A DNA stretch of 64,000 nt, taken from Antedon mediterranea (lineage: Eukaryota; Animalia; Echinodermata). The notes under the pieces are model-generated. The model was not told where the DNA came from. It worked only from the letters and a program-made list of their open reading frames with translations, and ran no database searches. Below, in pieces: positions 5,265 to 64,000 of the stretch (position 1 is the stretch's first letter; every line of letters starts with the position of its first letter). The DNA lies in contig NC_092673.1 in assembly GCF_964355755.1 (NCBI RefSeq), positions 24,921,648 to 24,985,647 on the forward strand, in the 5' to 3' direction. Made by a program: the position numbers and the translations under genes.

Positions 5265-8200
5265 ATGGCGACTTTTAAAAATAGCGACAGCACGGGCCTG
5301 TGGCTTCATAATAAGTTAGGAGACGAAGATTTGTGGTCAGGTATTAGTGGAATTTGTTCACATTTAGCTAGTAAAGAAGTTATTCAAAACGTGCAGGCAT
5401 GTTTCACAACGTTAACCCCAATAGTGAAGCTGAAATTACTAATGGCGTTTCTACACATACCAAGGAGAGCGGTACTGGAGGTAGGCCTAAAGTAGTTCAC
5501 TCGCAGGTCCGAACCGTTTAGGTGACATTTTCTATTTGCGAAAGACGATTCGTACCAAGTATAAATCTGGTCTTGTATGATATTTGCACTGAATAGATGA
5601 TGTTACCTTTCCGTTATTATAGGTTTATGATAGGCCTATGATATATAGTAGGCTAGCTAGTTAGGCGTAGCATACAAATAAGGTTATATTTTATATATAT
5701 AAATATTTAAATATTTAATAATATGAAATCCTCTGTCTGGGTGGGCGGCTTAGTTTAGGTCCTAAGTAAGGGGTGTCACGAAACCTCAGACCACGAAAGC
5801 TCAGACCCCCTAAGACCTAAGATCACGAAAGCTAAGACCCAACACCTAAGATTACAAATACTAAGATATACTACAGCTTAAAAACAATACTTGTTTATCC
5901 ATACATAATTTTAAACACAGTAGGTTTCATTTATTACCATAAATATAATTTAATACTACCGCAAAACATAGATAAACTCACATTATTTTCGCCCGTTGAG
6001 TAAATGTATATTTTTTCTTTACAACAAACAAATTTGACGGGTTGTTTGTTGGTATATATTTACTCCATTGTGTTGGTTCAGAGGATGTTTTTCTTACGCA
6101 CCTGCCTTTCTTGTATTTTGACTCCAAATTTGTTGAGTAACTTTATCCTGAACACCACACTTTAAAATTAGGACTTATAAGTACTTTCAGAAGGAGAAAC
6201 ACATAATAACAAATAAATAAATCCTTTAAATTGATGATTTTACAGATGTGTTTCTTGTATACTGTAATGTAACTCCTCGAGCTCCCATGCTCAATGTTTT
6301 TGTTTCTATGGAGCGCCCACAGCTGTTTCAACCAATGTAAAATAAATAGAAAAAGTCAAGCGCCCTCAATATTGTCAGACGGCGATATGTGCCTGAGCGT
6401 GACGCCGCGCGAGTGGTTGAATCCCGTTCAACTTTCGCGACATTTGCAACTTTTATAACTACACTTTAAATTATTTTAATCAATTTCGTCATAAATATTA
6501 TAAAACCATTTTTATACTATTTGTTAGAAAATAAGTTTTTTAATTACCGATTTTTTGGAAATAATAAGTAATTAAGCATAACACCAAGTTTACGAAATTA
6601 TTTACACCCGGAAGTTTTAAAAATTAACATCGATCGGCCTAGCAAATGTAAACAATAGAAAGTTTGAAAAAATGCTTGTCAAATTGTACACTTTTTGTTT
6701 TTATTCGTAATTTTCATAAATACTTGGAAAATCTAGGTAAAAGTTTGATTATATATGCTTACATGAGACATTGAATTGTTAGGAGGTGACGGTGAAAATC
6801 TCAAGAAATTTTCATTGAAAAACTCGACTGTTTTGTTAAATGCGAAACAGCGTATTTGGCGAGAGGTCGATGAACGCGTCTGATAACCGCTCGCTAGGCT
6901 GTACGCAACTAGGCCTAGGTTGTAGCTAGGCCTAGTTGGTACGTATAAGCATGGATTAAAGAATAGAAGGATATGCATCGACGTGAGATCAAGGGTTCCT
7001 TGACTCTCGCCGACAGACTGCGGACCGCCCACAATGTTACAGTTTAATTAACCGCATGGTAACAACGAAACGGTCGCGTGCCTAATATATTGTTTACTGC
7101 ACATGTGCAACGACATTTAACCTTGTTGGCTACGCTTCTTTCGCGCGTTCTTTGGTTGCATGATGTTTGTAGATGGTCAACTATTGACTATGTTGGTTTC
7201 TGCCGCGATTGATCTACGCTAATGATTTTTTTATGATGATTAAAGTAGCATTTTATGACCTGTAGTAGCCCTACATCTGAGACAATAACTATTAGTTGTC
7301 TCATTTGTTGTAAAATTACAAGAATGCTAGCCTAGCTAGGCCTTGTACTAACTAGGCTAAACTGGGCTAGTAAACCCTATATGATTTGCCGACATTGATA
7401 CTGCCTAGGTAGGCCTAGGCTAATCTTAAATACTCACCGTTGTCTTACTTCTTGTGTGAATAATAATAGGTAGGCCTACTTCGTTTGTTCGTGATCAAGT
7501 TTGCCCTGCGTGTACTTTTCAAAACGACCGCTAGGTAACGAATCGCAACTATACATAGCCAGCCAATCCCGGATCAGGGATCGCTGTTTTCATTCAATTA
7601 GGCCCGGTGATGTGGATGACATAACCACTAGCCAATCACCAGGCACTACAGTTTAAATATAATCACATCGATAATTAAGGAGATTTATGAAGAAACCACT
7701 GCTTAGCCATATATTAAAAAACACGATTGGTGTATGTCTGAACACCGGCCACGCTAACAACATACATGGTCAAATGCATAATTTAATATTCTATAGATTA
7801 ACGCAATTTTTAATGACAGAAGATGGCAGGCAAATAATGATAATTCAAATATAAAAATTGCATATTTTATTAATATTACCAACTACTTAAAATTACCAGT
7901 CGTAAGAAAGTGAACTTTTCGTAGTCCGATTGTGATGAAACTAAAACAGAATTATTCAGCAATATATGTTTGTTATCAATTAATCATCGACGCAGACATG
8001 TCAATAGAACATTCAGACTGCGCATACGATTTCTACATGGTTACGTTTTGGTCTCAAAAAATGTAACAGTTGATTCGCAGCGTTTTACAGAGGGCCGCGG
8101 TTAGAGACACGGAGTTCAATGAACGTGTTTGTTTGATTGGCAGCAGTGCTTTAGTATAGGCAAGCGCGTTGTAAAATCGTTTGATGTCACCGTCGATGCA

Positions 8201-11200
8201 TATCCTTCTATTCTTTAATCCATGGTATAAGTAGTGTAATCATGATATACATCATTTTAATTTACAATAGATTAAATAATAAGCTTAATTATTATCATTG
8301 TATTTATTTCAACTGAATATAATTCATCATAAATGTAAAAATTTAGTAAAACTACTAACTACCAGGCCTAGGCTAGGCCCTTAAAATTAAAGCCTATACA
8401 AAAATACTCAAACTACTGTATGATAAATATAATATAAAATTAAAGGTTGGTAAAATTAACATTTCTTTTCATTTTTGTAGGCAACACAGTTTCACGAAAA
8501 GGCTTTACGTTGTACTTGCTTTTGTTGTGGAACAAAATTTAAAGAAAAAGATAAAAAATACAATTTTTAAAATATGAAAAGCCGTCACAAATTTGCACTA
8601 AATCTAACAAATGTAAAATCACAACCTATATACATTTTTACAACCTGCCATTCACGAATTTGCAATGGATACTGTATACTACCACGCTAACATTTAAATT
8701 AACAGGGCATGGAACAAATTGCTTGGCATGCTACACCAACAACTTACAACAACTATGACTTGGGCAAAAACTACATTCACAAGTGAAAGAACACACTGGC
8801 GTTTAAGGGAACAGTTTTTTTTATTTGGTACAGCTGCTCCATAATCTGCTTTTCTTCCTTATATCTTCACTCTTTTTGAAAGTTTATACTAACAAATTTA
8901 TTTAAATGAACATACCTCATAATCAAATAACTGTTTTCTCATCCTAATTTATATACATAGTTTAAAAACTGCCAATTTTCAATTAAGATTACATCATACA
9001 TTGTACATTTCTATTCAACAAAATTGTCAGAACTTTCTATTATTTAAATGTCTAAGATAGTCAGGTCTCGGGTCCATTCTACAGTCACCACAGATTGACT
9101 TTTTCATCACAAAATTTCTGAAATTATAAAATGTATTAATGTGTAAATTAAGTATTTTTTTAATTACATAAAAAATATGATATTTTTAGCAGAATACAGG
9201 CATATTGCACCAGGTGTAATACAGCCTAAGCTACATATGCTTGAGCACCATGCTATTGCATTCATGAGAGAATGGAAGGTGGTCTCTGAACAAGGCGGGG
9301 AGCTAATACATGCCAAACTCAACCGTCACAAAACAGCAGTGTGGATTAGAGTCAAACTTAGACTCATCTGACTTTCACATCTCCAATGATACAAAATGAA
9401 ATAATAAAACCTAACAAATGCAAGAAAGCCAACAAAGAATGATTCATTAACATTAATGATCATAAAATATTGTACATTTTTAAATGTTAAAGGAATATTG
9501 CATTGTATTGATTTCCTATTAACAATGCCTAATGATAATGAACATGTAAAAGTAATACTATAGTATGTCTATATTTCAATTACTAACTAATTACTATTGA
9601 TTGATAGTACTACTGCTGTACTGTACATGTGTTAGTGATTGATTGTTAAAGTTACAAATTCATAGCATGGTAAACACAATTTAAAATTTACTAGTTCTTG
9701 AACAGTAAAATAAACTTACCTATATAGATGGTAGGTATAGGTATTGGTCCAAATCTGTTTAAAATGTTTTAGCCATTTTGGGTTGCCGCTATACTATATT
9801 ATTATGTACCTAAAAAATATTAATAGTAATAGTATAACATTATAATAAGAATTAATTAAAATTAACTTATTATATTTACTATGGTTGCATACACACTAAT
9901 TTGAATATGCAGTGATGAGCAAAAACAAATGTTAAAATTCATTATTTTATAATAATTGTAATTATTACATACAGGGTAGGCATATATGCCTTATGTCATT
10001 GCATAGGGTATATATAACCAGGTATCCTCATAATAAACATTATTTGTAATAAATACTGTAAATATATTAAAAATAAAAATTAATAATAGCCTCTAGGCCT
10101 AATTAGGTAGCCTACTAATACCTAGCCTATTGCTCTAGGCTAGGCTAAATAAGCTGGAAAGCTGCTTCTCTTAGGCTGCTAGTGCAAGAGAGCACAGGTC
10201 TAGCTAGTATATTAAAATAAAAATAGGGCCTAGCCTAGCATAGCCCAGCCAGTGGTAGTGATTGGTTGTTAATATTGAAAATTAATAGCATGGTAAACAC
10301 AATTTAAAATTTACTAGTTCTTGAACAGTAAAATAAACTTACCTATAATATAGATGGTAGGTATAGGTATTGGTCCAAATCTGTTTAAAATGATTTTTCC
10401 ACTTCGGGTTGCCGCTATGTACCTAAAAAATAGTAAAACATTACTATAAGAATTAATTAAAATTAGCTTATTAAATTTAATATGGTTGCATACATACTAA
10501 TTTGAATATGCAGTGATGAGCAAAAACGAATGTTAAAATTCATTATTTATAATAATTGTAATTATTACATACAGGGTAGGCATATATGCCTTATGTCATT
10601 GCATAGGGTATATATAACCAGGTATTCTCATAATAAACATTATTTAAATAAAATACTGTAAATATATTAAAACTAAAATTAATAATAATTAAATAATAAT
10701 ATATAGGCGTAGAGCCTAGACCTAATTAGGTAGTCTACTTATACCTAGCCTATTGCTCTAGGCTAGGCTAAATAAGCTGGAAAGCTGCTTCTATGTAGGC
10801 TGCTAGTGTTAGAGAGCACAGGTCTAGCTAGTATATTAAAATAAAAATAGGGCCTATAATATAGGCCTAGCCTACCCAGCCACTGGTAGTGATTGATTGT
10901 TAATATTGAAAATTAATAGCATGGTAAACACAATTTAAAATTTACTAGTTCTTGAGCAGTAAAATAAACTTACCTACTGTATATAGATGGTAGGCTGCTA
11001 GGTATTGGTCCAAATCTGTTTAAAATGTTTTTGCCACTTCGGGTTGCCGCTATGTACCTACAAAATAGTAAAACATTATTATAAGAATTACTTAAAATTA
11101 GCTTATTAAATTTAATATGGTTGCATACATACTAATTTGAATATGCAGTGATGAGCAAAAACGAATGTTAAAATTCATTATTTATAATAATTGTAATTAT

Positions 11201-14200
11201 TACATACAGGGAAGGCATATATGCCTTATGTCATTGCATAGGGTATATATAACCAGGTATTCTCATAACAAACATTATTTAAATAAATACTGTAAATATA
11301 TTAAATTAAAATTAATAATAATTAAATAATAATATATAGGCGTAGAGCCTAGACCTAATTAGGTAGTCTACTTATACCTAGCCTAATTGCTCTAGGCTAG
11401 GCTAAATAAGCTGGAAAGCTGCTTCTCTGTAGGCTGCTGCTAGTGATAGAGAGCACAGGTCTAGCTAGTATATTAACATAAAAATAGGGCCTATAATATA
11501 GGCCTAGCCTACCCAGCCAGAGGTAGTGATTGATTGTTAATATTGAAAATTAATAGCATGGTAAACACAATTTAATATTTGCTACTTCTTGAACAGCAAA
11601 ATAATCTTACCTATATAGATGGTAGGTATGGTCCAAATCTGCTTAGCCACTTCAGGTTACTGCTCTATATATGTAGGCTACCTACAATAGTATAACATTA
11701 ATAATTATTATAACAATTTTATAAAATTAACTTAACTTATTAAATTTAATATGATTGCATACTAATTTGAATATGCAGTGATGAGCAAAACCGAATGTTA
11801 ATATGATGCTTGTCATTATTTATATTGTAATTATACTATTCCCTAGGGCCTATGTCATTGCATACATCATACATGGTATATATAATCCTCATAATATTAA
11901 ATTTACAGTTTTTGTAATGAATACTGTAAATTTATTAAAACTAAAATTAATTATACTGATTAAATAATATTAAAAATATATAGGCCTAGGCCTAGGCGTA
12001 GATCCTGGGCCTAATTTTAATTAGGTAGCCTACTAATACCTATTAGGCTAGTAGTAGGCTAGCCTACTCAAGGCCAGGCTAACTAAGCCGGAAATCTGCT
12101 TCTCTGTAGTAGGCTGCTAGAGAGCACAGGTCTAGCTAGGGCCTAGGCCTAGTATTAAAATAAAAATAGGGCCTATAATATTGGTATATGCCTACCCTAC
12201 CCAGCCAGGCCTAAATAATTAATATAATGTAACATTTCCAAACTCATTTGGGTCAGCTGTCACATGAAAGGCAGTGTAGCAACTAGAGTAGACACAAGCC
12301 TAAGCCTAAAAATGACACAATTTGAAACGGCCATAGCTCAAAAATTCAACCATCACCTCTCGACCATTACTATGTTATAACATTCACAGATAACTAAATT
12401 ATCATGCAGTACCAAAGAATTAGAGTGAAAATTACATTTTTTAAAGATACGGACAAACAAACATGTACCAAATTTGGAAATGTCACTCACGTGCGTAAAT
12501 TGGTATATGCTTGTATTTTATGGTCCACCCTTCCATTAATTTTCAGCGTTATATTCCTTGTAAAAAACAAAACGACAACGTGCTTGTTTCATCCAGGGAC
12601 TCTTTAATGAATATTCATATTTTTAGCGACCCTTTATTTTTTTATCTCATTCTCATTGGCTGTTTAAAACATGTCTTTAAATGACGTTTGACTCCACTTT
12701 GCACACGTGGATTTGTAAGTAATTGTTTATGTATTGTTACTCCAGCGATACGACTTGTAACGTTGAGGGCGCATGACTTAATTCGTATGTTTGAAACAGC
12801 TGTGCGCCAAAAGAGCAACAATAATAGTACAAGTATAAAAACAGAAAGAAAACGAAACAAAAAAACTTATCATGATTTTTTAATTAAAATTTATTTGCCA
12901 GTATTTATTTCTTCGTACTTGCATGATTATACTATTATCATTACAATTTTAATTTTACATTGTTCCATCCACACTGTAGATGGACTCCACAGAGATTTTT
13001 GCTCTTTTGACGTTCCATAGAAACAAAAACATTGAACATGGCCCATGGGGTGGGTAGGCCTACTGTACTGTAGGCTAGTCATTTTGTGTGCGAGAAAAAC
13101 GTCTGTAAAATCATCAATTTAAAAATGTATTTGTTACTTTTTATGTGATTCTTTTTCATGAAAGTGCCAATTCTAAGGTGTGGTATTCAGAATAAATGTT
13201 AGGAGTTAAAATACAAGGCAGGTGCGAAAGATAAATATTTGTAATCTTAGGTGTTGGGTCTTAGCTTTCGTGATCTTAGGTCTTAGGGGGTCTGAGCTTT
13301 CGTGGTCTGAGGTTTCGTAACACCCCCTAAGTAAGTTCAAAATTTCAAATTGTTAAAAAAAGATCTTGCACAATTTTACAGTTTGCTGCACAATTTCATA
13401 TACCAGTATATAAAGTAGGAAATTAAAGTTGTTGCGCAATTTGATCATGAAAGAAGCTCAAAAAGAACATTCATTAATTTAATAATGATAAATAAATATA
13501 AAATTTTAAAAATAAATTTAAAAGCATACTGATCAATGTACTAAAAAAAGATTGTCCTCTACTCTCTAGCTAGGCCCTACACAGTACCTATGGTGGGCCA
13601 ATACAAGATGTAATTTTTAACCATATATATGTACATTCTGTACATTAATTATGCAATAGTAATACCAAAATGGCATATCGTATTTATAATTGTGTGACAT
13701 GATTTTGTTTTTCATACAGCACAAGGAAGATTTAGAGGATATTCTGCGACTTGCTTTACACGATAGTGACCAATGGGTATGCATGATAGCTGATCTCTTA
13801 AGGACATTCCCTCAGAATGGACAAATTAATTTAAAAGTGGAAGAAGAGCACCCAGCGTTGGCTGAAGCACTACAAGAGCTAAGGGTCAAGTGTAAGTTAG
13901 TGTTGCTAATGGTATTGCTATTGTAATGAGAGTTGCATTAAGTATGGCTATTTTAGTGAGTGTTGCATTAAGTATGGCTATTGTAATGAGTGTTGCATTA
14001 AGTATGGCTATTGTAGTGAATGTTACATTAAGTATGGCTACTGTAGTGAGTGTTGCATTAAGTATGGCTATTTTAGTGAGTGTTGCATTAAGTATGGCTA
14101 TTGTAATGAGTGTTGCATTAATTATGGCTATTGTAATGAGTGTTGCATTAAGTATGGCTATTGTTTGTAGTGAATGTTACATTAAGTATGGCTACTTTAG

Positions 14201-17200
14201 TGAGTGTTGGATTAAGTATGGCTACTTTAGTGAGTGTTGGATTAAGTATGGCTATTGTAATGAGTGTTGCATTAAGTATGGCTATTGTAATGAGTGTTGC
14301 ATTAAGTATGGCTATTGTAATGAGTGTTGCATTAAGTATGGCTATTGTAGTGAATGTTACATTAGGAAGGTTATTGTACAGTAGTAAGTGTTGCATTAAG
14401 TATGGCTAATGTAGTGAGTGTTACATTAAGTATGGCCAATGTAGTAAGTGTTGCATTAAGTATGGCTATTGTACTGTAGTGAGTGTTGCATTAAGTATGG
14501 CCAATGTAGTAAGTGTTGCATTAAGTATGGCTATTGTACTGTAGTGAGTGTTGCATTAAGTATGGCCAATGTAGTAAGTGTTGCATTAAGTATGGCTATT
14601 GTACTGTAGTGAGTGTTACATTAAGTATGGCCAATGTAGTGAGTGTTGCATTAAGTATGGCTATTGTAATGAGTGTTGCATTAAGTATGGCTATTGTACT
14701 GTAGTGAGTGTTGCATTAAGTATGGCTAATGTAGTGAGTGTTACATTAAGTATGGCCAATGTAGTGAGTGTTGCATTAAGTATGGCTACTGTAGTGAGTG
14801 TTGCATTAAGTATGGCTTTTGTAGTGAGTGTTGCATTAAGTATGGCTATTGTAGTGAGTGTTGCATTCAATATTTAAGTATGGCTATTGTAGTGAGTGTT
14901 GCATTAAGTATGGCTACTGTAGTGAGTGTTGCATTTAATATTTAAGTACAGTATGTCTATTGTAGTGATGTGTTTTTTATCCTATAACACCCTCAGCACA
15001 GCTACAGTATAATAATAGTTAATACATTAATTTTAATTTTTTTTTTTTTCAGTATCTGTAACAGATAGCAATGCATTACTGCCACTTGAATGTCTATATC
15101 TTAACCCTAATGCTCTCACCCAGTTAGTGGGAATGCAACGTCCACTAGTAAAGCACTTTGCTCTAAAAAGAAAACCAAAGTCAGCGGCCCTACGAGCAGA
15201 GCTACTTATCAAATGTGAGTAGGCTATCTCTAATTTGTTGGCCATATCACACACAAACAATACAACTGTGGTCTCACACATCCAACTAACTTTTAGCTGT
15301 AATGCAACTGTGGTCTTAATTCATTCATTCATTCAGGCTTATCGCCTGACTTTATTTACTTTAGGCCTCTGGCCCCTAGTAATTAACAAAATAATAATTA
15401 CATTGAAAAATAAAGCAATTTATGGTCACAAGATAAATGAATTAATTAATTTTGTTTTCTTAGCAAAACATATCTTAACTTATAAGCATGATAAATATAT
15501 TTAGATAGATTATCAATAATTATTGGATCCTGTGATGACATTAAACATTAATTTGACATCACCTTTGATGGTCAGCTCACACTGAAACAGTGTGAAAATT
15601 ATGTCGTGAAAATGAATGTAATTTCATATGCTACTCGACATAACCTATTTATTGTAGGACAACATTTTTGGATTTTTCATACATTTTTATCTATCATGAA
15701 TTGTAATGTAATATTTAATAATTGTTTTTTATTTATCTGCTTTTGTATATCTCTGAGCAAACATAATTTCTATGTATATTTAATATGCATATCATAATAA
15801 ATGGAAATAATTTTCCACTGATGAATGAATGAAACCATGTTTAATATTGTTTATTTTAGCTGCTGAGGCTGCTAAGCAACAAAGTAAGGTTGGAGCAACA
15901 GCTCCATTTAAAGGTCGTGGTATGACACCTCGCAAGAATGATGACTTAAGTAAGTATAAATTTATAATGAAACAATGATTAGCTAAAACATAAACTAGAA
16001 ATGGTAATACCATATGGCCAAGGATTTCCGGTTTTCAAATAGTTGATTGTTTATGTATGTTTATTCCAACCTTTACGTTTTCGTTTCATTTAAAATTAAT
16101 GTGTTTGATTGAGTGAATTGGTGAACAGTTATGATGTCACTTAACCATTTGTCAGTTTGGTATGGATTGTAAACAAAGTGGATCTCCCTATGTTTTTGTA
16201 TGTGCTAGAGAGATAAAAAACATGGAAAAACATCTATAGCAAGAAAATGGTTAAACTTCTTGTTACAATCAAAATAATTTTTTATTCAACTTAAATGAAG
16301 GGCCGCAGGGCCCATGGGTAATGTAAGTCTGGTGCTGGTATAGAAAACCATTTAAACAGTCAGTTGTCATAGTCATTTAAATTAAGAATAGAGTAAAGCC
16401 CTGTACAATGGACACCTCTATTAAGGGGACACTTTCCTGTGAAAGAACAAGCTGCAATATATGTTTTAACACTATATATAGTCAACCCTATTCAGAGGAA
16501 ACGCCTATTAAAGGGACACTCTATTGGGGACTGAGTGTATCCCCTTGATATAGGTTCTACTGTATTTTTAAATAGAGTTTCAAACTGATTAATAACATTT
16601 TTACTTTTTTTTAAGCGCCATTAAAGGGTATTCCTAAAACACCTGGATTCCGGACGGCAAACACACCCAGAAGGAATACAGTGCCATTGAACCGCAATAT
16701 ATCAAGAATGTCAAGTGTTGGAAAAGAAAGGGGTACTAAGCTATTAGATATAACGGAACAACCCATTGGAGGTGGACCAGCTGCTAAGCGTAGAAAAAAG
16801 CAAGCAGGTATGAGATGCATAGATAGACATGTTAAAATTATTAATTTTGTCACTAGGGAGGTTTCACAATGCTACAAATACGATAACGAAAATGGACGCG
16901 TCACACACACGTATTCGTATGGCAAAAAAGTATTGAGGGCGCGGTTCGAAATATGAATGCGGTAAATTTGAACGAAGCGTAGGTACGTATTGCTTGGCTT
17001 CCCAGGCCTAGGGTAACATCAAAGCGAGTGAGGACTTTAAAAACTGCTATTTATCAAAATTGACCTGGCAATTAATATTAGTAAATTTCAATAAATCTAT
17101 AATTATTGTTATTATAAATCCATAATATTATAATCATGAATCATTCCTGATTCAAATGCAAAATAGATCAAAAGCTATACTCCTTTTGTAGTTACAAATA

Positions 17201-51800: not shown

Positions 51801-52674
51801 ATTGAGAATTGATATCATCATCAATAACATCTTTTTTTAGTTCGGTTAGTGTACTGGTAGTTGATGGTACAGGAGGTAACGATTTTGGACGGGCAGGTAG
51901 ATCGGTGCCCTCTGCACTACCAAGATCACTGATGCTAGCATCGTCGCGAATGAGTGTGTCAACAGTGGTCAAAGATTCACCGTATATATCAATCAGTAGT
52001 CTGTTTAACTTATCTTGTTGAGGTCCTTCACTTAAACGTTCGCTTACGATCCAACGAGCCGTATTCTTACTCAAACTCATCATTAAATGCTCATCCCATT
52101 TAGTTGATGATTTTTTGTTTAGTTTATTCTGCTGGTTTTCATCAACAGTCTCATCTTGTGTTAAAAATACAGAAGATTTTTTCGATAAATCTTGAGGAGA
52201 GCTTACTTTTGTTTTAACCTCATCTTCTTTGTCTTTGATGTTATCTGGTTTGGGATGTTTGACTTTCTTTTTCAGAGGTTTCAACCTGTGTTGTGAGATG
52301 GTCTTTATGTGACAAGGTAGATGTTTTTTCTCGGCCCCTCGTTGGTTGTATCTACCCATAATTCCGGATGTTTTAGCGGGTTTCCGATCCACAATGCTTG
52401 AAGGATCGAACGACCTCCAAATAGCATCTTTATCGTAGGGAAGTGTGTGGGCAGCATGATGGCGTACCACCTCTTCACTGAATATTAAATCAGCACTAAT
52501 CTTTTTAATATATTTCTTATTATATGTTTCTACTGGTTGCAGAAAGTGACGACTGATAGCTTGTTCAAGGTGAAATGATTTGAAATTTCTTTCGTCATCT
52601 CCAACTTGTGGGACTTTGACCCTGTCTGCACAAACAAAAAGCTGTGGATGGAGTAGTTTTTCCTGAGCATTCAT
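42827..52674 (-). CDS. HEATR4: HEAT repeat-containing protein 4-like; exons ~51729-52674, 51442-51585, 50538-50773, 50032-50145, 49259-49433, 47828-47997, 45938-46238, 45175-45360, 44818-45003, 44428-44617, 44044-44242, 42827-43747
   Basis: Long low-complexity N-terminus, then tandem HEAT-like units (EHVRLQAIATVARAA, WAAAQCLA, EVRRVAAQTLGKTGHG, SVRLAAARTAG, WKVKAHAIQAL, EPGVRAEAC) and an acidic tail. The orthology call is from recalled similarity. Confidence 0.75.
46885..47197. repeat. 37-bp minisatellite (~8.5 copies)
   Basis: Unit ATACTGTATACAGTGTTATGTGTAA(G/A)TTTACATTTA(T/C). Confidence 0.95.
48428..48603. mobile_element. hAT-like MITE
   Basis: CAGTG...CACTG ends with a near-perfect 8-bp TSD, TCTCCATT (48420-27) and TTTCCATT (48604-11). 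Confidence 0.7.
50996..51288 (+). mobile_element. tRNA-derived CORE-type SINE
   Basis: GGCCGTGTGGCGCAGTG (A box), GGTTCGAATCC (B box), TAGGCAAGACACTTTAC...CTCTCCACCCAGGTGTATAAAATGGGTACC (CORE-like) and a (TTA)n tail. Confidence 0.8.
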
Positions 52675-53457
52675 AATTGCCTGATAATAAAACAAAAAAA
52701 TAGATACTGTAATTATTTAATATAAGAAATTAAAAAACCCATACATAGCAATCTATGAAAAAAGGCCTCACTCAATCACACACAGCATACAATATAATAT
52801 AGGACCTAGCCTAGCTAGGCCTATAAAAAATAATATTTCTAAGTAGGCCTAAATTTAATTGGCTACTAGGCCTAGTAGTAGTACTACTACTTCCCTACTC
52901 TAGGCCTACCCTACCACTACGTACTCTAGTTGGGTAGCTACCTAGGCCTAGCCTACTCCCCGGTTGGACCGATGGACCTACTAGTCCTAGCCTACTACAG
53001 CTAGCTAAAGTTAGTAGGCATAGGACTCTCACTCAAGAGCATATGATAATGGCATGATGATGATGATGATGGATGGATGATGGAGGCTCCAGTCAGCAGA
53101 GTCTAGAGAGTCAGGAGTCACTTCTACTGCTGGGAAAACTAATAGTAATAGTAGCTAATAATATGCCTAACTAGCTAGCTAGCATACACACACATACTAA
53201 CCTGATTTCTATTTATTTTATTTATGTTTCATTTTCATATTATACAATATAATTATTGTTTTGTCCACCCTCCTTTCCCACCACACTCTTTCGAGTCTAG
53301 TCTCTCGAGGCTTGTGTCAAGCTAGCCGACAATAAGCCAGCCGACAATAAGCCAGCCCACTTTTATTTTTTCCAGCCGACAATAAGTATGAAACGCCGTT
53401 TGTGTATTTTTCACACTTTCAGTATTGCTTAAGGTTTTTATAGTATTAGAAATTCAA

Positions 53458-56400
53458 TATTTGTGAGAAAATGGCGGATTGCACCTGGGAGTCACTTGGT
53501 GGGATTATACTAGGGGACCTCCTTAATCATCAAGTATAAGTTAGAGTAGAACCGCTGGTCCTGTTTACTCAGCCCTCATCTTTTAAATCTGAGTGTAACT
53601 CAATTACGATTTTTAATATTATAGTGAAATTTGATACTGTATTTGTGAGAAAATGGCGGATTGCCCCTGGGAGTCACTTGGTGGGATTATACTAGGGTAC
53701 CTCCTTAGTCGTGCAGTATAAGTTAGGGTGGGACCACTGGTCCCGTTTACTCAGCCCTCATCTTTTAAATCTGAGTGTAACTCAATTACGATTTTTAATA
53801 TTATAGTGAAATTTGATACTGTATTTGTGAGAAAATGGCGGATTGCTCCTGGGATTCACTTGGTGGGATTATACTAGGGTACCTCCTTAGTCGTGCAGTA
53901 TAAGTTAGGGTGGGACCACTGGTCCCGTTTACTCAGCCCTCATCTTTTAAATCTGAGTGTAACTCAATTACGATTTTTAATATTATAGTGAAATTTGATA
54001 CTGTATTTGTGAGAAAATGGCGGATTGCTCCTGGGAGTCACTTGGTGGGGTTATACTAGGGTACCTCCTTAGTCGTCCAGTATAAGTTAGAGTAGGACCG
54101 CTGGTCCTGTTTACTCAGCCCTCATCTTTTTAAATCTGAGTGTAACTCAATTACGATTTTAAATATTATAGTGAAATTTGGTACTGTATTTGTGAGAAAA
54201 CGGCGTATTGCTCCTGGAAGTCACTTGGTGGGATTATACTAGGGTACCTCCTTAGTTGTCCAGTATAAGTTAGAGTAGGGCCGCTGGTCTTGTTTACTCA
54301 GCCCTCATCTTTTAAATCTGAGTGTAACTCAATTACGATTTTTAATATTATAGTGAAATTTGGTACTGTATTTGTGAGAAAACGGCGGATTGCTCCTGGA
54401 AGTCACTCGGTGGGATTATACTAAGGTACCTCCTTAGTTGTCCAGTATAAGTTAGAGTAGGACCACTGGTCCTGTTTACTCAGCCCTCATCTTTTAAATC
54501 TGAGTGTAACTCAATTACGATCTTTAATATTATAGTGAAATTTGATACTGTATTTGTGAGAAAATGGCGGATTGCTCCTGGGAGTCACTAGGTGGGATTA
54601 TACTAGGGTACCTCCTTAGTCGTCCAGTATAAGTTAGAGTAGGACCACTGGTCCTTTTTACTCAGCCCTCATCTTTTAAATCTGAGTGTAACTCAATTAC
54701 GATTTTTAATATTATAGTGAAATTTGATACTGTATTTGTGAGAAAATGGCGGATTGCTCCTGGGAGTCACTTGGTGGGATTATACTAGGGTACCTCCTTA
54801 GTCGTCCAGTATAAGTTAGAGTAGGACCACTGGTCCCTTTTACTCAGCCCTCATCTTTTAAATCTGAGTGTAACTCAATTACGATTTTTAATATTATAGT
54901 GAAATTTGATACTGTATTTGTGAGAAAATGGCGGATTGCTCCTGTGAGTCACTTGGTCGGATTATACTAGGGTACCTCCTTAGTCGTCCAGTATAAGTTA
55001 GAGTAGGACCACTGGTCCTGTTTACTCAGCCCTCATCTTTTAAATCTGAGTGTAACTCAATTACGATTTTTAATATTATAGTGAATTTTGATACTGTATT
55101 TGTGAGAAAATGGCGGATTGCTCCTGGGAGTCACTTGGTGGGATTATACTTGAGTACCTCCTTAGTCGTCCAGTATAAGTTAGAGTAGGACCGCTGGCCC
55201 TGTTTACTCAGCCCTCATCTTTTAAATCTGAGTTTAACTCAATTACGATCTTTAATATTATAGTGAAATTTGATACTGTATTTGTGAGAAAATGGCGGAT
55301 TGCTCCTAGGAGTCACTTGGTGGGATTATACTAGGGGACCTCCTTAATCGTCCAGTATAAGTTAGAGTAGGACCGCTGGTCCCGTTTACTCAGACCTCAT
55401 CTTTTAAATCTGAGTGTAACTCAATTACGATTTTAAATATTATAGTGAAATTTGATACTGTATTTGTGAGAAAATGGAGGATTGCTCCTGGGAGTCACTT
55501 GGTGGGATTATACTAGGGTACCTCCTTAGTCGTCCAGTATAAGTTAGAGTAGGACCACTGGTCTTGTTTATTCAGCCCTCATCTTTTAAATCTGAGTGTA
55601 ACTCAATTACGATTTTTAATATTATAGTGAAATTTGATACTGTATTTGTGAGAAAATGGCGGATTGCTCCTGGGAGTCACTTGGTGGAATTATACTTGGG
55701 TACCTCCTTAGTCGTCCAGTATAAGTTAGAGTAGGACCGCTGGCCCTGTTTACTCAGCCCTCATCTTTTAAATCTGAGTGTAACTCAATTACGATCTTTA
55801 ATATTATAGTAAAATTTGATACTGTATTTGTGAGAAAATGGCGGATTGCTCCTAGGAGTCACTTGGTGGGATTATACTAGCGGACCTCCTTAATCGTCCA
55901 GTATAAGTTAGAGTAGGACCGCTGGTCCCGTTTACTCAGCCCTCATCTTTTAAATCTGAGTGTAACTCAATTACGATCTTTAATATTATAGTGAAATTTG
56001 ATACTGTATTTGTGAGAAAATGGCGGATTGCTCATAGGAGTCACTTGGTGGGATTATACTAGTGGACCTCCTTAATCGTCCAGTATAAGTTAGAGTAGGA
56101 CCGCTGGTCTTGTTTACTCAGCCCTCATCTTTTAAATCTGAGTGTAACTCAATTACGATTTTTAATATTATAGTGAAATTTGGTACTGTATTTGTGAGAA
56201 AATGGAGGATTGCTCCTGGGAGTCACTTGGTGGGATTATACTAGGGTACTTCCTTAGTCGTCCAGTATAAGTTAGAGTAGGACCGCTGGCCCTGTTTACT
56301 CAGCCCTCATCTTTTAAATCTGAGTGTAACTCAATTACGATATTTAATATTATAGTGAATTTTGATACTGTATTTGTGAGAAAATGGAGGATTGCTCCTG

Positions 56401-59400
56401 GGAGTCACTAGGTGGGATTATACTAGGGGACCTCCTTAATCGTCCAGTATAAGTTAGAGTAGGACCGCTGGTCCCGTTTACTCAGCCCTCATCTTTTAAA
56501 TCTGAGTGTAACTCAATTACAATTTTTTATATAGTGAAATTTGATACTGTATTTGTGAGAAAATGGCGGATTGCTCCTGGGAGTCACTTGGTGGGATTAT
56601 ACTAGGGTACATCCTTAGTCGAACAGTATAAGTTAGAGTAGGACCGCTGGTCCTATTTACTCAGCCCTCATCTTTTAAATCTGAGTGTAACTCAATTACA
56701 AATTTTTAATATTATAGTGAAATTTGATACTGTATTTGTGAGAAAATGGCGGATTGCTCCTGGGAGTCACTTGGTGGGATTATACTTGGGTACCTCCTTA
56801 GTCGTCCAGTATAAGTTAGAGTAGGACCGCTGGCCCTGTTTACTCAGCCCTCATCTTTTAAATCTGAGTGTAACTCAATTACGATCTTTAATATTATAGT
56901 AAAATTTGATACTGTATTTGTGAGAAAATGGCGGATTGCTCCTAGGAGTCACTTGGTGGGATTATACTAGCGGACCTCCTTAATCGTCCAGTATAAGTTA
57001 GAGTAGGACCGCTGGTCCCGTTTACTCAGCCCTCATCTTTTAAATCTGAGTGTAACTCAATTACGATCTTTAATGTTATAGTGAAATTTGATACTGTATT
57101 TGTGAGAAAATGGCGGATTGCTCATAGGAGTCACTTGGTGGGATTATACTAGTGGACCTCCTTAATCGTCCAGTATAAGTTAGAGTAGGACCGCTGGTCT
57201 TGTTTACTCAGCCCTCATCTTTTAAATCTGAGTGTAACTCAATTACGATTTTTAATATTATAGTGAAATTTGGTACTGTATTTGTGAGAAAACTGCGGAT
57301 TGCTCCTGGAAGTCACTCGGTGGGATTATACTAGGGTACCTCCTTAGTTGTCCAGTATAAGTTAGAGTAGGACCGTTGGTCCCGTTTACTCAGCCCTCAT
57401 CTTTTAAATCTGTGTGTAACTAGTGAAATTTGATACTGTATTTGTGAGAAAATGGCGGATTGCTCCTGGGAGTCACTTGGTGAGATTATACTAGGGTACC
57501 TCCTTAGTCGTCCAGTATAAGTTAGAGTAGGACCGCTGGTCTTGTTTACTCAGCCCTCATCTTTTAAATCTGAGTGTAACTCAATTACGATTTTTAATAT
57601 TATAGTGAAATTTGGTACTGTATTTGTGAGAAAACTGCGGATTGCTCCTGGAAGTCACTCGGTGGGATTATACTAGGGTACCTCCTTAGTTGTCCAGTAT
57701 AAGTTAGAGTAGGACCACTGGTCCTGTTTACTCAGCCCTCATCTTTTAAATCTGAGAGTAACTCAATTACGATCTTTAATATTATAGTGAAATTTGATAC
57801 TGTATTTGTGAGAAAATGGCGGATTGCTCCTGGGAGTCACTTGGTGGGATTATACTATTGGACCTCCTTAATCGTCCAGTATAAGTTAGAGTAGGACCGT
57901 TGGTCCCGTTTACTCAGCCCTCATCTTTTAAATCTGTGTGTAACTAGTGAAATTTGATACTGTATTTGTGAGAAAATGGCGGATTGCTCCTGGGAGTCAC
58001 TTGGTGAGATTATACTAGGGTACCTCCTTAGCCGTCCAGTATAAGTTAGAGTAGGACCGCTGGTCCTGTTTACTCAGCCCTCATCTTTTTAAATCTGAGT
58101 GTAACTCAATTACGATTTTAAATATTATAGTGAAATTTGGTACTGTATTTGTGAGAAAACGGCGGATTGCTCCTGGAAGTCACTCGGTGGGATTATACTA
58201 GGGTACCTCCTTAGTTGTCCAGTATAAGTTAGAGTAGGACCACTGGTCCTGTTTACTCAGCCCTCATCTTTTAAATCTGAGAGTAACTCAATTACGATCT
58301 TTAATATTATAGTGAAATTTGATACTGTATTTGTGAGAAAATGGCGGATTGCTCCTGGGAGTCACTTGGTGGGATTATACTAGTGGACCTCCTTAATCGT
58401 CCAGTATAAGTTAGAGTAGGACCGTTGGTCCCGTTTACTCAGCCCTCATCTTTTAAATCTGTGTGTAACTAGTGAAATTTGATACTGTATTTGTGAGAAA
58501 ATGGCGGATTGCTCCTGGGAGTCACTTGGTGAGATTATACTAGGGTACCTCCTTAGTCGTCCAGTATAAGTTAGAGTAGGACCGCTGGTCCTGTTTACTC
58601 AGCCCTCATCTTTTTAAATCTGAGTGTAACTCAATTACGATTTTAAATATTATAGTGAAATTTGGTACTGTATTTGTGAGAAAACGGCGGATTGCTCCTG
58701 GAAGTCACTCGGTGGGATTATACTAGGGTACCTCCTTAGTCGTCCAGTATAAGTTAGAGTAGGACCGCTGGTCCTGTTTACTCAGCCCTCATCCTTTAAA
58801 TCTGAGTGTAACTCAATAACGATTTTTAATATTATAGTGAAATTTGATACTGTATTTGTGAGAAAATGGCGGATTGCTCATGGGAGTCACTTGGTGGGAT
58901 TATACTAGGGTACCTCCTTAGTCGTCCAGTATAAGTTAGAGTAGGACCACTGGTCTTGTTTATTTAGCCCTCATCTTTTAAATCTGAGTGTAACTCAATT
59001 ACGATTTTTAATATTATAGTGAAATTTGATACTGTATTTGTGAGAAAATGGCGGATTGCTCCTGGGAGTCACTTGGTGGGATTATACTAGGGTACATCCT
59101 TAGTCGTCCAGTATAAGTTAAGGTGGGACCACTGGTCCCGTTTACTCAGCCCTCATCTTTTAAATCTGAGTGTAACTCAATTACGATTTTTAATATTATA
59201 GTGAAATTTGATACTGTATTTGTGAGAAAATGGCGGATTGCTCCTGGTAGTCACTTGGTGGGATTATACTAGTGTACCTCCTTAGTCGTCCAGTATAAGT
59301 TAGAGTAGGACCACTGGTCTTGTTTACTCAGCCCTCATCTTTTAAATCTGAGTGTAACTCAATTACGATTTTTAATATTATAGTGAAATTTGATACTGTA

Positions 59401-62400
59401 TTTGTAAGAAAATGGAGGATTGCTCCTGGGAGTCACTTGGTGGGATTATACTAGGGTACTTCCTTAGTCGTCCAGTATAAGTTAGAGTAGGACCGCTGGC
59501 CCTGTTTACTCAGCCCTCATCTTTTAAATCTGAGTGTAACTCAATTACGATCTTTAATATTACAGTGAATTTTGATACTGTATTTTTGAGAAAATGGAGG
59601 ATTGCTCCTGGGAGTCACTAGGTGGGATTATACTAGGGGACCTCCTTAATCGTCCAGTATAAGTTAGAGTAGGACCGCTGGTCCCGTTTACTCAGCCTTC
59701 ATCTTTTAAATCTGAGTGTAACTCAATTACAATTTTTTATATAGTGAAATTAGATACTGTATTTGTGAGAAAATGGAGGATTGTTCCTGGGAGTCACATA
59801 GTGGGATTATACTAAGTTACGTCCTTAGTCGTCAAGTATAAGTTAGAGTAGGACCGCTGGTCCTGTTTACTCAGCCCTCATCTTTTAAATTTGAGTGTAA
59901 CTCATTTACGATTTTTAAAATATAGTGAAATTTGATACTGTATTTGTGAGAAAACGGCGGATTGCTCCTGGAAGTCACTCGGTGGGATTATACTAGGGTA
60001 CCTCCTTAGTCGTCCAGTATAAGTTAGAGTAGGACCGCTGGTCCTGTTTACTCAGCCCTCATCCTTTAATTCTGAGTGTAACTCAATAACGATTTTTAAT
60101 ATTATAGTGAAATTTGATACTGTATTTGTGAGAAAATGGCGGATTGCTCATGGGAGTCACTTGGTGGGATTATACTAGGGTACCTCCTTAGTCGTCCAGT
60201 ATAAGTTAGAGTAGGACCACTGGTCTTGTTTATTCAGCCCTCATATTTTAAATCTGAGTGTAACTCAATTACGATTTTTAATATTATAGTGAAATTTGAT
60301 ACTGTATTTGTGAGAAAATGGCGGATTGCTCCTGGGAGTCACTTGGTGGGATTATACTAGGGTACATCCTTAGTCGTCCAGTATAAGTTAAGGTAGGACC
60401 ACTGGTCCCGTTTACTCAGCCTTCATCTTTTAAATCTGAGTGTAACTCAATTACGATTTTTAATATTATAGTGAAATTTGATACTGTATTTGTGAGAAAA
60501 TGGCGGATTGCTCCTGGTAGTCACTTGGTGGGATTATACTAGGGTACCTCCTTAGTCGTCCAGTATAAGTTAGAGTAGGACCACTGGTCCTGTTTACTCA
60601 GCCCTCATCTTTTAAATCTGAGTGTAACTCAATTACGATTTTTAATATTATAGTGAAATTTGATACTGTATTTGTGAGAAAATGGAGGATTGCTCCTGGG
60701 AGTCACTTGGTGGGATTATACTAGGGTACTTCCTTAGTCGTCCAGTATAAGTTAGAGTAGGACCGCTGGCTCTGTTTACTCAGCCCTCATCTTTTAAATC
60801 TGAGTGTAACTCAATTACGATCTTTAATATTATAGTGAATTTTGATACTGTATTTGTGAGAAAATGGAGGATTGCTCCTGGGAGTCACTAGGTGTGATTA
60901 TACTAGGGGACCTCCTTAATCGTCCAGTATAAGTTAGAGTAGGACCGCTGGTTCCGTTTACTCAGCCCTCATCTTTTAAATCTGAGTGTAACTCAATTAC
61001 AATTTTTTATATAGTGAAATTTGATACTGTATTTGTGAGAAAATGGCGGATTGCTCCTGGGAGTCACTTGGTGGGATTATACTAGGGTACATCCTTAGTC
61101 GAACAGTATAAGTTAGAGTAGGACCGCTGGTCCTGTTTACTCAGCCCTCATCTTTTAAATCTGAGTGTAACTCAATTACAAATTTTTAATATTATAGTGA
61201 AATTTGATACTGTATTTGTGAGAAAATGGCGGATTGCTCCTGGGAGTCACTTGGTGGGATTATACTTGGGTACCTCCTTAGTCGTCCAGTATAAGTTAGA
61301 GTAGGACCGCTGGCCCTGTTTACTCAGCACTCATCTTTTAAATCTGAATGTAACTCAATTACGATCTTTAATATTATAGTAAAATTTGATACTGTATTTG
61401 TGAGAAAATGGCGGATTGCTCCTAGGAGTCACTTGGTGGGATTATACTAGCGGACCTCCTTAATCGTCCAGTATAAGTTAGAGTAGGACCGCTGGTCCCG
61501 TTTACTCAGCCCTCATCTTTTAAATCTGAGTGTAACTCAATTACGATCTTTAATATTATAGTGAAATTTGATACTGTATTTGTGAGAAAATGGCGGATTG
61601 CTCATAGGAGTCACTTGGTGGGATTATACTAGTGGACCTCCTTAATCGTCCAGTATAAGTTAGAGTAGGACCGCTGGTCTTGTTTACTCAGCCCTCATCT
61701 TTTAAATCTGAGTGTAACTCAATTACGATTTTTAATATTATAGTGAAATTTGGTACTGTATTTGTGAGAAAACGGCGGATTGCTCCTGGAAGTCACTCGG
61801 TGGGATTATACTAGGGTACCTCCTTAGTTGTCCAGTATAAGTTAGAGTAGGACCACTGGTCCTGTTTACTCAGCCCTCATCTTTTAAATCTGAGTGTAAC
61901 TCAATTACGATCTTTAATATTATAGTGAAATTTGATACTGTATTTGTGAGAAAATGGCGGATTGCTCCTGGGAGTCACTTGGTGGGATTATACTAGGGTA
62001 CCTCCTTAGTCGTCCAGTATAAGTTAGTGTAGGACCGCTGGTCTTGTTTATTCAGCCCTCATCTTTTAAATCTGAGTGTAACTCAATTACGATTTTTAAT
62101 ATTATAGTGAAATTTGATACTGTATTTGTGAGAAAATGGAGGATTGTTCCTGGGAGTCACTTGGTGGGATTATACTAGGGTACTTCCTTAGTCGTCCAGT
62201 ATAAGTTAGAGTAGGACCGCTGGCCCTGTTTACTCAGCCCTCATCTTTTAAATCTGAGTGTAACTCAATTACGATCTTTAATATTATAGTGAATTTTGAT
62301 ACTGTATTTGTGAGAAAATGGAGGATTGTTCCTGGGAGTCACTAGGTGGGATTATACTAGGGGACCTCGTTAATCGTCCAGTATAAGTTAGAGTAGGACC

Positions 62401-64000
62401 GCTGGTTCCGTTTACTCAGCCCTCATCTTTTAAATCTGAGTGTAACTCAATTACAATTTTTTATATAGTGAAATTTGATACTGTATTTGTGAGAAAATGG
62501 CGGATTGCTCCTGGGAGTCACTTGGTGGGATTATACTAGGGTACATCCTTAGTCGAACAGTATAAGTTAGAGTAGGACCGCTGGTCCTTTTTACTCAGCC
62601 CTCATTTTTTAAATCTGAGTGTAACTCAATTACGATCTTTAATATTATAGTGAAATTTGATACTGTATTTGTGAGAAAATGGCGGATTGCTCCTGGGAAT
62701 CACTAGGTGGGATTATACTAGGGTACCTCCTTAGTCGTCCAGTATAAGTTAGAGTAGGACCACTGGTCCTTTTTACTCAGCCCTCATCTTTTAAATCTGA
62801 GTGTAACTCAATTACGATTTTTAATGTTATAGTGAAATTTGATACTGTATTTGTGAGAAAATGGCGGATTGCTCCTGGGAGTCACTTGGTCGGATTATAC
62901 TAGGGTACCTCCTTAGTCGTCCAGTATAAGTTAGAGTAGGACCACTGGTCCTGTTTACTCAGCCCTCATCTTTTAAATCTGAGTGTAACTCAATTACGAT
63001 TTTTAATATTATAGTGAAATTTGATACTGTATTTGTGAGAAAATGGCGGATTGCTCCTGGGAGTCACTTGGTGGGATTATACTTGAGTACCTCCTTAGTC
63101 GTCCAGTATAAGTTAGAGTAGGACCGCTGGCCCTGTTTACTCAGCCCTCATCTTTTAAATCTGAGTGTAACTCAATTACGATCTTTAATATTATAGTGAA
63201 ATTTGATACTGTATTTGTGAGAAAATGGCGGATTGCTCCTAGGAGTCACTTGGTGGGATTATACTAGGGGACCTCCTTAATCGTCCAGTATAAGTTAGAG
63301 TAGGACCGCTGGTCCCGTTTAATCAGACCTCATCTTTTAAGTCTGAGTGTAACTCAATTACGATTTTTTATATACTGAATTTTGATACTGTATTTGTGAG
63401 AAAATGGCGGATTGCTCCTGGGAGTCACTTGGTGGGATTATACTAGGGTACCTCCTTAGTCGTCCAGTATAAGTTAGAGTAGGACCACTGGTCTTGTTTA
63501 CTCAGCCCTCATCTTTTAAATCTGAGTGTAACTCAATTACGATTTTTTATATAGTGAAATTTGATACTGTATTTGTGAGAAAATGGCGGATTGCTCCTGG
63601 GAGTCACTTGGTGAGATTATACTAGGGTACCTCCTTAGTCGTCCAGTATAAGTTAGAGTAGGACCGCTGGTCCTGTTTACTCAGCCCTCATCTTTTTAAA
63701 TCTGAGTGTAACTCAATTACGATTTTAAATATTATAGTGAAATTTGGTACTGTATTTGTGAGAAAATGGCGGATTGCTCATGGGAGTCACTTGGTGGGAT
63801 TATACTAGGGTACCTCCTTAGTCGTCCAGTATAAGTTAGAGTAGGACCACTGGTCTTGTTTATTCAGCCCTCATCTTTTAAATCTGAGTGTAACTCAATT
63901 ACGATTTTTAATATTATAGTGAAATTTGATAATACTGTATTTGTGAGAAAATGGCGGATTGCTCCTGGGAGTCACTTGGTGGGATTATACTAGGGTACAT
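53458..64000. repeat. 182-bp satellite array, ~58 monomers, continuing past the window end
   Basis: TTGTGAGAAAATGGCGGATTG recurs at 53461, 53643, 53825 and onward (period 182), with 160-, 180- and 183-bp variants. Confidence 0.98.

Follow-up and report, generated by a model that had tools for sequence, protein, structure and literature searches.

Does the long and short end design behind the 12/23 rule of vertebrate RAG1/2 and its recombination signal sequences (RSSs) also occur in Chapaev transposons? This question is raised by a DNA transposon of the crinoid Antedon mediterranea, located in a stretch of 64,000 nucleotides (contig NC_092673.1 of assembly GCF_964355755.1, positions 24,921,648 to 24,985,647; hereafter the window). 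The element is 6.5 kb long and carries a terminal repeat beginning with CAC and an inner motif at either end. Our analysis revealed that it is almost certainly a Chapaev transposon outside the Chapaev3 group, and that the 10-bp offset between its two ends, i.e., one helical turn, is very probably conserved.

Structure and boundaries of the element ends

The initial annotation, made from the sequence, had described bipartite ends with unequal spacers, and its coordinates were confirmed. The 14-bp terminal inverted repeats (TIRs) at 6318..6331 (forward strand) and 12791..12804 (reverse strand) match each other perfectly. A motif search of the window placed the 17-bp inner motif at 6353..6369 (forward) and 12763..12779 (reverse), leaving a long spacer of 21 bp on the left (6332..6352, forward) and a short spacer of 11 bp on the right (12780..12790, reverse). 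The motif has just these two sites in the window, even with up to three mismatches allowed, and two matches were seen in none of 100 shuffled controls. When the left end was compared with the right, the top offset was +10 with a score of 14.5, followed by a runner-up of 5, and none of 5000 shuffles equalled that score at any offset.

The element is flanked by a target-site duplication (TSD) of 4 bp, CGCC, at 6314..6317 and 12805..12808; a duplication of 5 bp was ruled out. Empty sites support this placement: the long-TIR element into which the transposon is inserted occurs free of the insert and with a single CGCC in 27 contigs of sequencing run X6 and in one contig each of runs X1 and X4. The other (right) arm of this host element aligns across the insertion point. 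The boundaries are thus confirmed twice, by the empty sites and by the arm alignment.

The description of these ends as RSS-like was upheld only in part. They do start with CACAG, and like an RSS pair they have two conserved parts, set apart by distances that differ between the ends by about one turn of the helix (offset 10). The heptamer, on the other hand, is matched at 5/7 positions, and the second motif does not resemble a nonamer, with 6/9 matches to the consensus at 23 bp on the left and 3/9 at 12 bp on the right (1–4/9 in two further Chapaev elements, L028 and L015, described below). Judged by these matches, the inner motif is not a nonamer. The spacers of 21 and 11 bp were counted from the 14-bp TIR rather than from a heptamer. 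The CAC termini, which the initial annotation compared with those of Transib and ProtoRAG, are present and are the sole terminal bases common to this element and the other two-ended Chapaev elements (CACGG, CACTG), but they are generic for Chapaev (PMC4079192). A CCTCAA string shared with the second element of AanRAGL was dismissed as a coincidence because the distances differ (37/47 versus 18/27).

Conservation of the spacing within the family

A 10-bp difference could be a private indel of this one copy or a product of chance, and the window copy is indeed decayed, with several deletions and insertions. We examined copies of the family in Logan contigs (four of seven runs found), which cannot pair left with right ends or give family TSDs, and in which depth is not copy number. 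X4 and X6 derive from one sample, possibly the source of the window itself, while X1 is by its record a different organism. Contig depths of 277–340, compared with about 8 in long contigs of a single locus, suggest that the family has multiple copies.

At the left end, the listed X4 pieces include four that run from the TIR into the motif: in three of them (depths 340, 36 and 8.5) the spacer is free of gaps, and in the fourth (depth 242, nine substitutions) it carries +1/-1, a net change of zero. At the right end, the listed X4 pieces at depths 277, 350 and 10.6 are gap-free, and the sole indel among the listed right-end pieces lies at 12678, outside the end. In X1 the right end is complete and gap-free, differs by three substitutions and is joined to another flanking sequence. 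A diverged relative (12 differences over 69 bp) leaves the alignment at 12775, yet its terminal CTGTG follows at the unchanged distance of 29 bases. Run X2 gave nothing on the TIR-to-motif part of either end, and X2 and X3 contained small shares only. Hence the long spacer keeps its length in sister copies, and the short one in sister copies, in the diverged relative and in a second organism (organism A); the family holds 21/11 while the sequence of the spacers drifts.

The concern that spacer length might vary freely among copies, or be peculiar to this one, is answered by this constancy and by the recurrence of the offset in the unrelated Chapaev elements L028 and L015. A bacterial repeat with the same first 12 bases as one of them shows no such offset. 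A private indel or chance is thus refuted by the kept spacing and the recurrent offset, and we regard that explanation as hardly credible.

Classification of the element

Chapaev transposons were reportedly described by Kapitonov and Jurka in 2007. In PMC4079192, their hallmarks are CAC/GTG termini and TSDs of 3–4 bp, and the group (CMC/CMCT clade) is described there and in PMC4411706 and PMC12730594. The window element has both the CAC...GTG termini and a TSD within this range. Its coding remnants agree with the Chapaev type named in the initial annotation. An N-terminal, frameshifted Chapa zinc finger, a domain that resembles the NZD of RAG1 (10.64898/2026.01.24.700457, PMC4411706), remains at 8482..8735 on the forward strand; its three motifs follow in the expected order at 8493, 8582 and 8708. 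It scores 11 bits, a value equalled at none of 150 random places, and its first motif has a single match across the six frames of the 64 kb; in a plain six-frame search the remnant was weak (independent E-value 1.5), though it was the top match of the window.

The C-terminus of the transposase (KLHMLEHH...EQGGE) remains at 9183..9430 on the forward strand; four residues are lost in frame, and there is one more deletion. Its LH and H(4)H motifs and the catalytic E (9183–9341) are 64–67% identical to the crinoid proteins P0001 and P0002, and the nearest proteins overall come from the crinoids Anneissia (75%) and Antedon (69%). The first two catalytic D residues and the C(2)C motif, present in the relative P0007, are deleted. 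Because most of the catalytic core is missing, the window copy is dead and internally deleted, and it contributes nothing functional by itself. Full-length starfish relatives bear Chapa, RING and DUF1280 regions, of which the last serves, in our own reading, as a Chapaev marker. In a tree of Chapaev-like sequences only, the remnant groups with crinoid and starfish proteins (support 99/96). Pfam and PDB searches with the C-terminal remnant alone gave no match.

The proposed link to RAG1L/ProtoRAG was not borne out. The 4-bp TSD departs from the 5 bp of Transib and RAGL, and the CX2CX3GHX4C (CCGHC) tail was found neither at the end of the remnant nor in any of 140 proteins longer than 200 aa, some of them partial. 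A RAG2-like open reading frame (ORF), which the initial annotation had suggested looking for, did not appear: none of the six ORFs of at least 70 aa in this internally deleted element matched the RAG2 family, and in L015 and L028 the space beside the transposase amounts to at most 1.1 kb and holds no ORF above 143 aa. On the TSD and the tail, and with no RAG2 match found, a RAG1L/ProtoRAG identity was rejected. Transib was rejected because a 5-bp TSD is lacking and a Chapa remnant is present, and Chapaev3, which is defined by a 3-bp TWA TSD (PMC4079192, PMC3014272), because the TSD is CGCC.

Ends of other Chapaev elements

A protein scan of metagenome contigs with Chapaev sequences yielded 76 loci. 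Both ends were recovered in two of them, L028 (6.2 kb, with a whole transposase match) and L015 (5.1 kb); the other 74 gave at most one end. In both L028 and L015 the terminal repeat measures 12 bp, and an inner match of 20–30 bp has its top offset at exactly +10, with a score equalled by none of 5000 shuffles in either case. The long end lies upstream of the gene in both, as in the window, and the C-terminal transposase segments of the three elements are 33–40% identical. No TSD was found for L015, whereas L028 (35–6200) is flanked by a 5-bp duplication of Transib/RAG length, seen in one copy.

Single ends were compared with a position-blind motif sampler. Among 23 non-redundant ends, a 12-bp motif started at 18–20 in seven and at 28–30 in ten; the remaining best starts were at 21–27 in one, at 49 in three and elsewhere in two. 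The near-identical L031, L032 and L043 and the alternative candidates L026:2475 and L057:1598 were left out of this set, as were distant or doubtful matches in L038, L039, L049, L050, L060 and L071. In an all-against-all comparison of ends, 76 of 296 cross-element pairs scored at least 8, against 8.1 expected from shuffles, and their offsets fell at 0–2 (33 pairs), 3–7 (7), 8–12 (28) and 16–20 (8). Three right ends (L054:3355, L057:1855 and L070:1753) hold a further copy of the inner motif at 49. In L054 and L057 this copy is some 20 bp further in than the one at 29, a hint of repeated sites in helical phase.

Protein scans of the viral_contigs and genome_contigs sets returned no Chapaev. One viral match to the end pattern, L077, was taken as chance, with neither a partner end nor a transposase. 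The end-pattern scan of genome_contigs gave at least 120 loci, mostly chance or repeated bacterial coding matches, and no Chapaev protein match was found among those listed. The listed loci did include L131, a Chapaev-like element that lacks genes, and an unrelated miniature inverted-repeat transposable element (MITE). L131 (5433–7753) has a 5-bp duplication in its one copy, and its contig, filed under a Dehalococcoidia metagenome-assembled genome (MAG), is likely animal DNA binned with a bacterial MAG. The MITE (141–159 bp, 19-bp TIR, TSDs of about 10 bp) occurs in at least seven contigs of one Sulfurimonas MAG (L085, L092, L116, L144, L156, L157 and L162) and probably derives from a bacterial insertion sequence; this is the repeat that shares its first 12 bases with the L028 ends but lacks the 10-bp offset.

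Homology of the transposase to RAG1

A profile built from 53 Chapaev sequences matched mouse RAG1 over residues 101–490 (E 1.4e-13), including the nonamer-binding domain (NBD), and aligned a GG(Q/R)P motif with the RAG1 GGRPR at the start of the NBD. A looser form, G-x(0-2)-[RQKP]-P, is present in 29 of 41 sequences. We modelled P0007 with AlphaFold2 (predicted local distance difference test 84.7). The model matched the RAG1 core with Z 27.7 over 461 residues at a root-mean-square deviation (rmsd) of 3.4, ProtoRAG with Z 25.7 and HzTransib with Z 25.1, and its residues 160–273 matched the RAG1 dimerization domain with Z 11.1. Several alignments extend into the NBD range at high rmsd (model residue 355 on RAG1 residue 390, rmsd 10.3), as a hinged domain would give. 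These comparisons showed homology between Chapaev transposases and RAG1 that begins at the N-terminal zinc finger, includes the NBD and extends into the core.

Given this homology, the NBD-like segment is the likely reader of the inner motif. A homodimer prediction for this segment (P0007 335–450), run without an alignment, scored 0.02, which decides neither way. An alternative is that the inner motif is read by another domain, e.g., the Chapa zinc finger, and that the likeness to 12/23 is a convergent, generic asymmetry rather than an inherited one. Such asymmetry exists elsewhere: the 19-bp palindromes at piggyBac ends are identical and sit asymmetrically, and piggyBat ends that have been made symmetrical show no activity (PMC11707139). 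The inner motifs of Chapaev moreover differ between families and lack nonamer likeness, with 1–4/9 at the RSS registers in five of six ends (6/9 in the left end of the window). Against convergence, the offset is about 10 bp, the motif starts at 18–20 and 28–30 overlap the RSS nonamer positions 20 and 31 as well as the second element of AanRAGL (after 13 bp plus 4 or 13 bp; PMC9435367), and the NBD-homologous segment stands at the same place in Chapaev as in RAG1. On this evidence we consider convergence improbable.

Proposed pairing of long and short ends

We propose that the RAG1-related Chapaev transposase pairs one long with one short end, as RAG pairs a 12 with a 23; by analogy with RAG, this is on balance the probable reading. 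The Chapaev core would cut at CAC while the RAG1-type NBD-like segment would hold the inner motifs, and the 10-bp step would keep these on the same face of the helix. In RAG, the NBD dimer pivots to accept a 12 and a 23 nonamer (PMC10462144); the NBD analogy, together with motifs one turn apart on the same face, favours a long/short pair, so that unlike ends would be preferred over like ends. The window copy would have been moved in trans by an intact member of its family. A stronger version, that Chapaev transposases, without RAG2 or a CCGHC tail, enforce 12/23-like pairing through their RAG1-type NBD, may hold but is put forward tentatively.

Several observations weigh against these proposals or against the conservation on which they build. 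Within the family, one X4 contig (depth about 19) lost 1 bp of the spacer with no compensation listed, and 513 left-end and 17 right-end pieces lie beyond those listed. Across families, the two-ended elements total four, and all are unlike, with offsets of 10, 10, 10 and 8; if either length were free, four unlike pairs would arise by chance about once in 16. The offset of 8 belongs to L131, a 2.3-kb element that shares the motif but has a degenerate TIR. The single ends were seeded partly by eye after the motif was known, two loci had alternative ends, and the 23 ends are not independent because many come from related families. The ends of the window fit the cross-family motif poorly, with 4.4 bits on the right and a best position of 20 instead of 29 on the left, which puts the left end among the seven with starts at 18–20, though comparison with its partner shows it to be the long one; homology of the cross-family motif is therefore weak for the family of the window. 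In the protein, most Chapaev sequences have GQP instead of the nonamer-contacting GRP(R/K). The 3' ends belong to the long class in some families and to the short class in others; this label changes four times on a tree of 75 columns (shuffled mean 6.1). The proteins of L036 (short) and L041 (long) are 84% identical, and their ends differ by 9 bp; because the left ends of these two loci are missing, like-with-like pairs are possible there.

The switches in the class of the 3' end could mean that polarity has flipped or that no pairing rule exists. Under the latter, an inner motif on one helical face would work at n or at n+10, and unlike ends would be frozen and tolerated rather than required. 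The label changes on the tree, the 9-bp indel between L036 and L041, and the best motif copies of L054, L057 and L070, two turns further in at 49, all suit such phase tolerance, as does the proposal that TIR asymmetry matters relatively little to invertebrate RAGL (PMC7204232). It accounts less readily for the finding that all four two-ended elements are unlike and none like-with-like, albeit in a tiny sample, and for the family of the window holding 21/11 despite the drift of its spacers. We judge tolerance without a pairing rule to be unlikely, though still a live contender and a more serious one than convergence, and long/short pairing remains our preferred reading.

Comparison with known systems

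The design itself is known from sister groups, and the Chapaev branch is one for which no such report was found. RSS12/RSS23-like ends occur in several Transib families (PMC1131882, Fig. 4C), and 12/23-like uneven ends in Subgroup I Transib and AanRAGL (PMC9435367); the ends of PflRAGL-A differ by 10 bp (PMC10462144) and ProtoRAG prefers asymmetric TIRs (PMC8289069). The origin of the asymmetry is debated between a Transib seed and RAGL-A (PMC10462144). Our literature searches found no report of end asymmetry in Chapaev; the defining Repbase Reports of 2007/2008 and Yuan and Wessler 2011 lay outside their coverage and may describe one. The published ends of the Chapaev3 Merrow elements (PMC4079192, Fig. 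S6, counted from the PDF text) cut both ways, as a 7-bp motif is offset by 9–10 bp in two of four consensus rows and by 0–1 bp in the other two, the latter counting against our proposal.

With described Chapaev elements, the window element shares CAC...GTG termini, a 4-bp TSD, the Chapa zinc finger and the LH and H(4)H motifs, and its full-length relatives carry Chapa, RING and DUF1280; the differences are the bipartite end with its 10-bp offset, which our searches did not find described, and the duplications of two related elements, L028 and L131, which exceed 3–4 bp. Transib likewise combines one transposase of RAG1-like fold with CAC termini, 5' and 3' ends that are unlike each other, and an NBD-equivalent segment, but it has 5-bp TSDs, an A-rich nonamer-like motif and no Chapa/NZD (10.64898/2026.01.24.700457). 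RAGL elements (PflRAGL-A, AanRAGL, ProtoRAG) share bipartite uneven ends (10 bp in PflRAGL-A; spacers of 4/13 bp in AanRAGL) and a transposase with an N-terminal zinc finger and an NBD-like region; their RAG2L, 5-bp TSDs and CCGHC tail were not found here. Compared with vertebrate RAG1/2 and the 12/23 RSS, the common ground is a CAC start, two conserved parts, lengths about one turn apart, and a protein homologous over RAG1 101–490 and the core. The terminal conserved part, in contrast, spans 12–14 bp instead of 7, and there is no nonamer consensus and no RAG2.

Genomic setting

The transposon lies in a nest within an intron of NELF-A, after an exon starting near 5265; the downstream exon (13714..13890, forward strand) is 100% identical to A. 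mediterranea NELF-A. This one intron houses three nested DNA transposons. The outermost (5770..13326) has GGGG ends and an 8-bp TSD, and the Chapaev element is inserted in its left arm; it is found at very high depth, with 15-bp subterminal tandem repeats and long degenerate arms, and it may be Merlin-like. The innermost (6950..8224, 1275 bp) is an unrelated non-autonomous passenger with a 34-bp perfect TIR starting with CATGG and a 7-bp TSD, and it may be P-superfamily-like. Just downstream of the transposase stop begins a tandem array of about 4.3 copies of a ~630-bp unit (9545..12190), a filler without a long ORF whose units are up to 98% alike. The next NELF-A intron contains a 30-bp minisatellite of about 33 copies (13912–14948). 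Farther along, the region 52001–64000 shows a sustained strand skew (GC skew about +0.13 and AT skew about -0.14 from 54001 on) and a GC content near 39%, unlike the rest of the window; it is perhaps a long satellite or a retroelement.

Implications for the Chapaev–Transib–RAG clade

Uneven ends have been published for Transib and RAGL only, and since the 12/23-like asymmetry is already described there, the gain made here is its extension to Chapaev. Our findings suggest that the long and short end design behind the 12/23 rule likely extends beyond the branches described so far, into a wider and possibly older one. Chapaev transposases have a more distant catalytic core, yet they share with RAG1 the N-terminal zinc finger, the RING and an NBD-like region. 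A one-turn offset in this group would move the design back to a deeper node, or else show that the architecture of these proteins repeatedly selects it. If Chapaev transposases do enforce long/short pairing, the rule would be ancestral to the whole Chapaev–Transib–RAG clade and would predate the capture of RAG2. Chapaev also offers a simple test, with a transposase made of one protein, free of RAG2, whose natural ends are long and short; if the rule holds, it would be a one-protein system in which 12/23-like pairing could be dissected.

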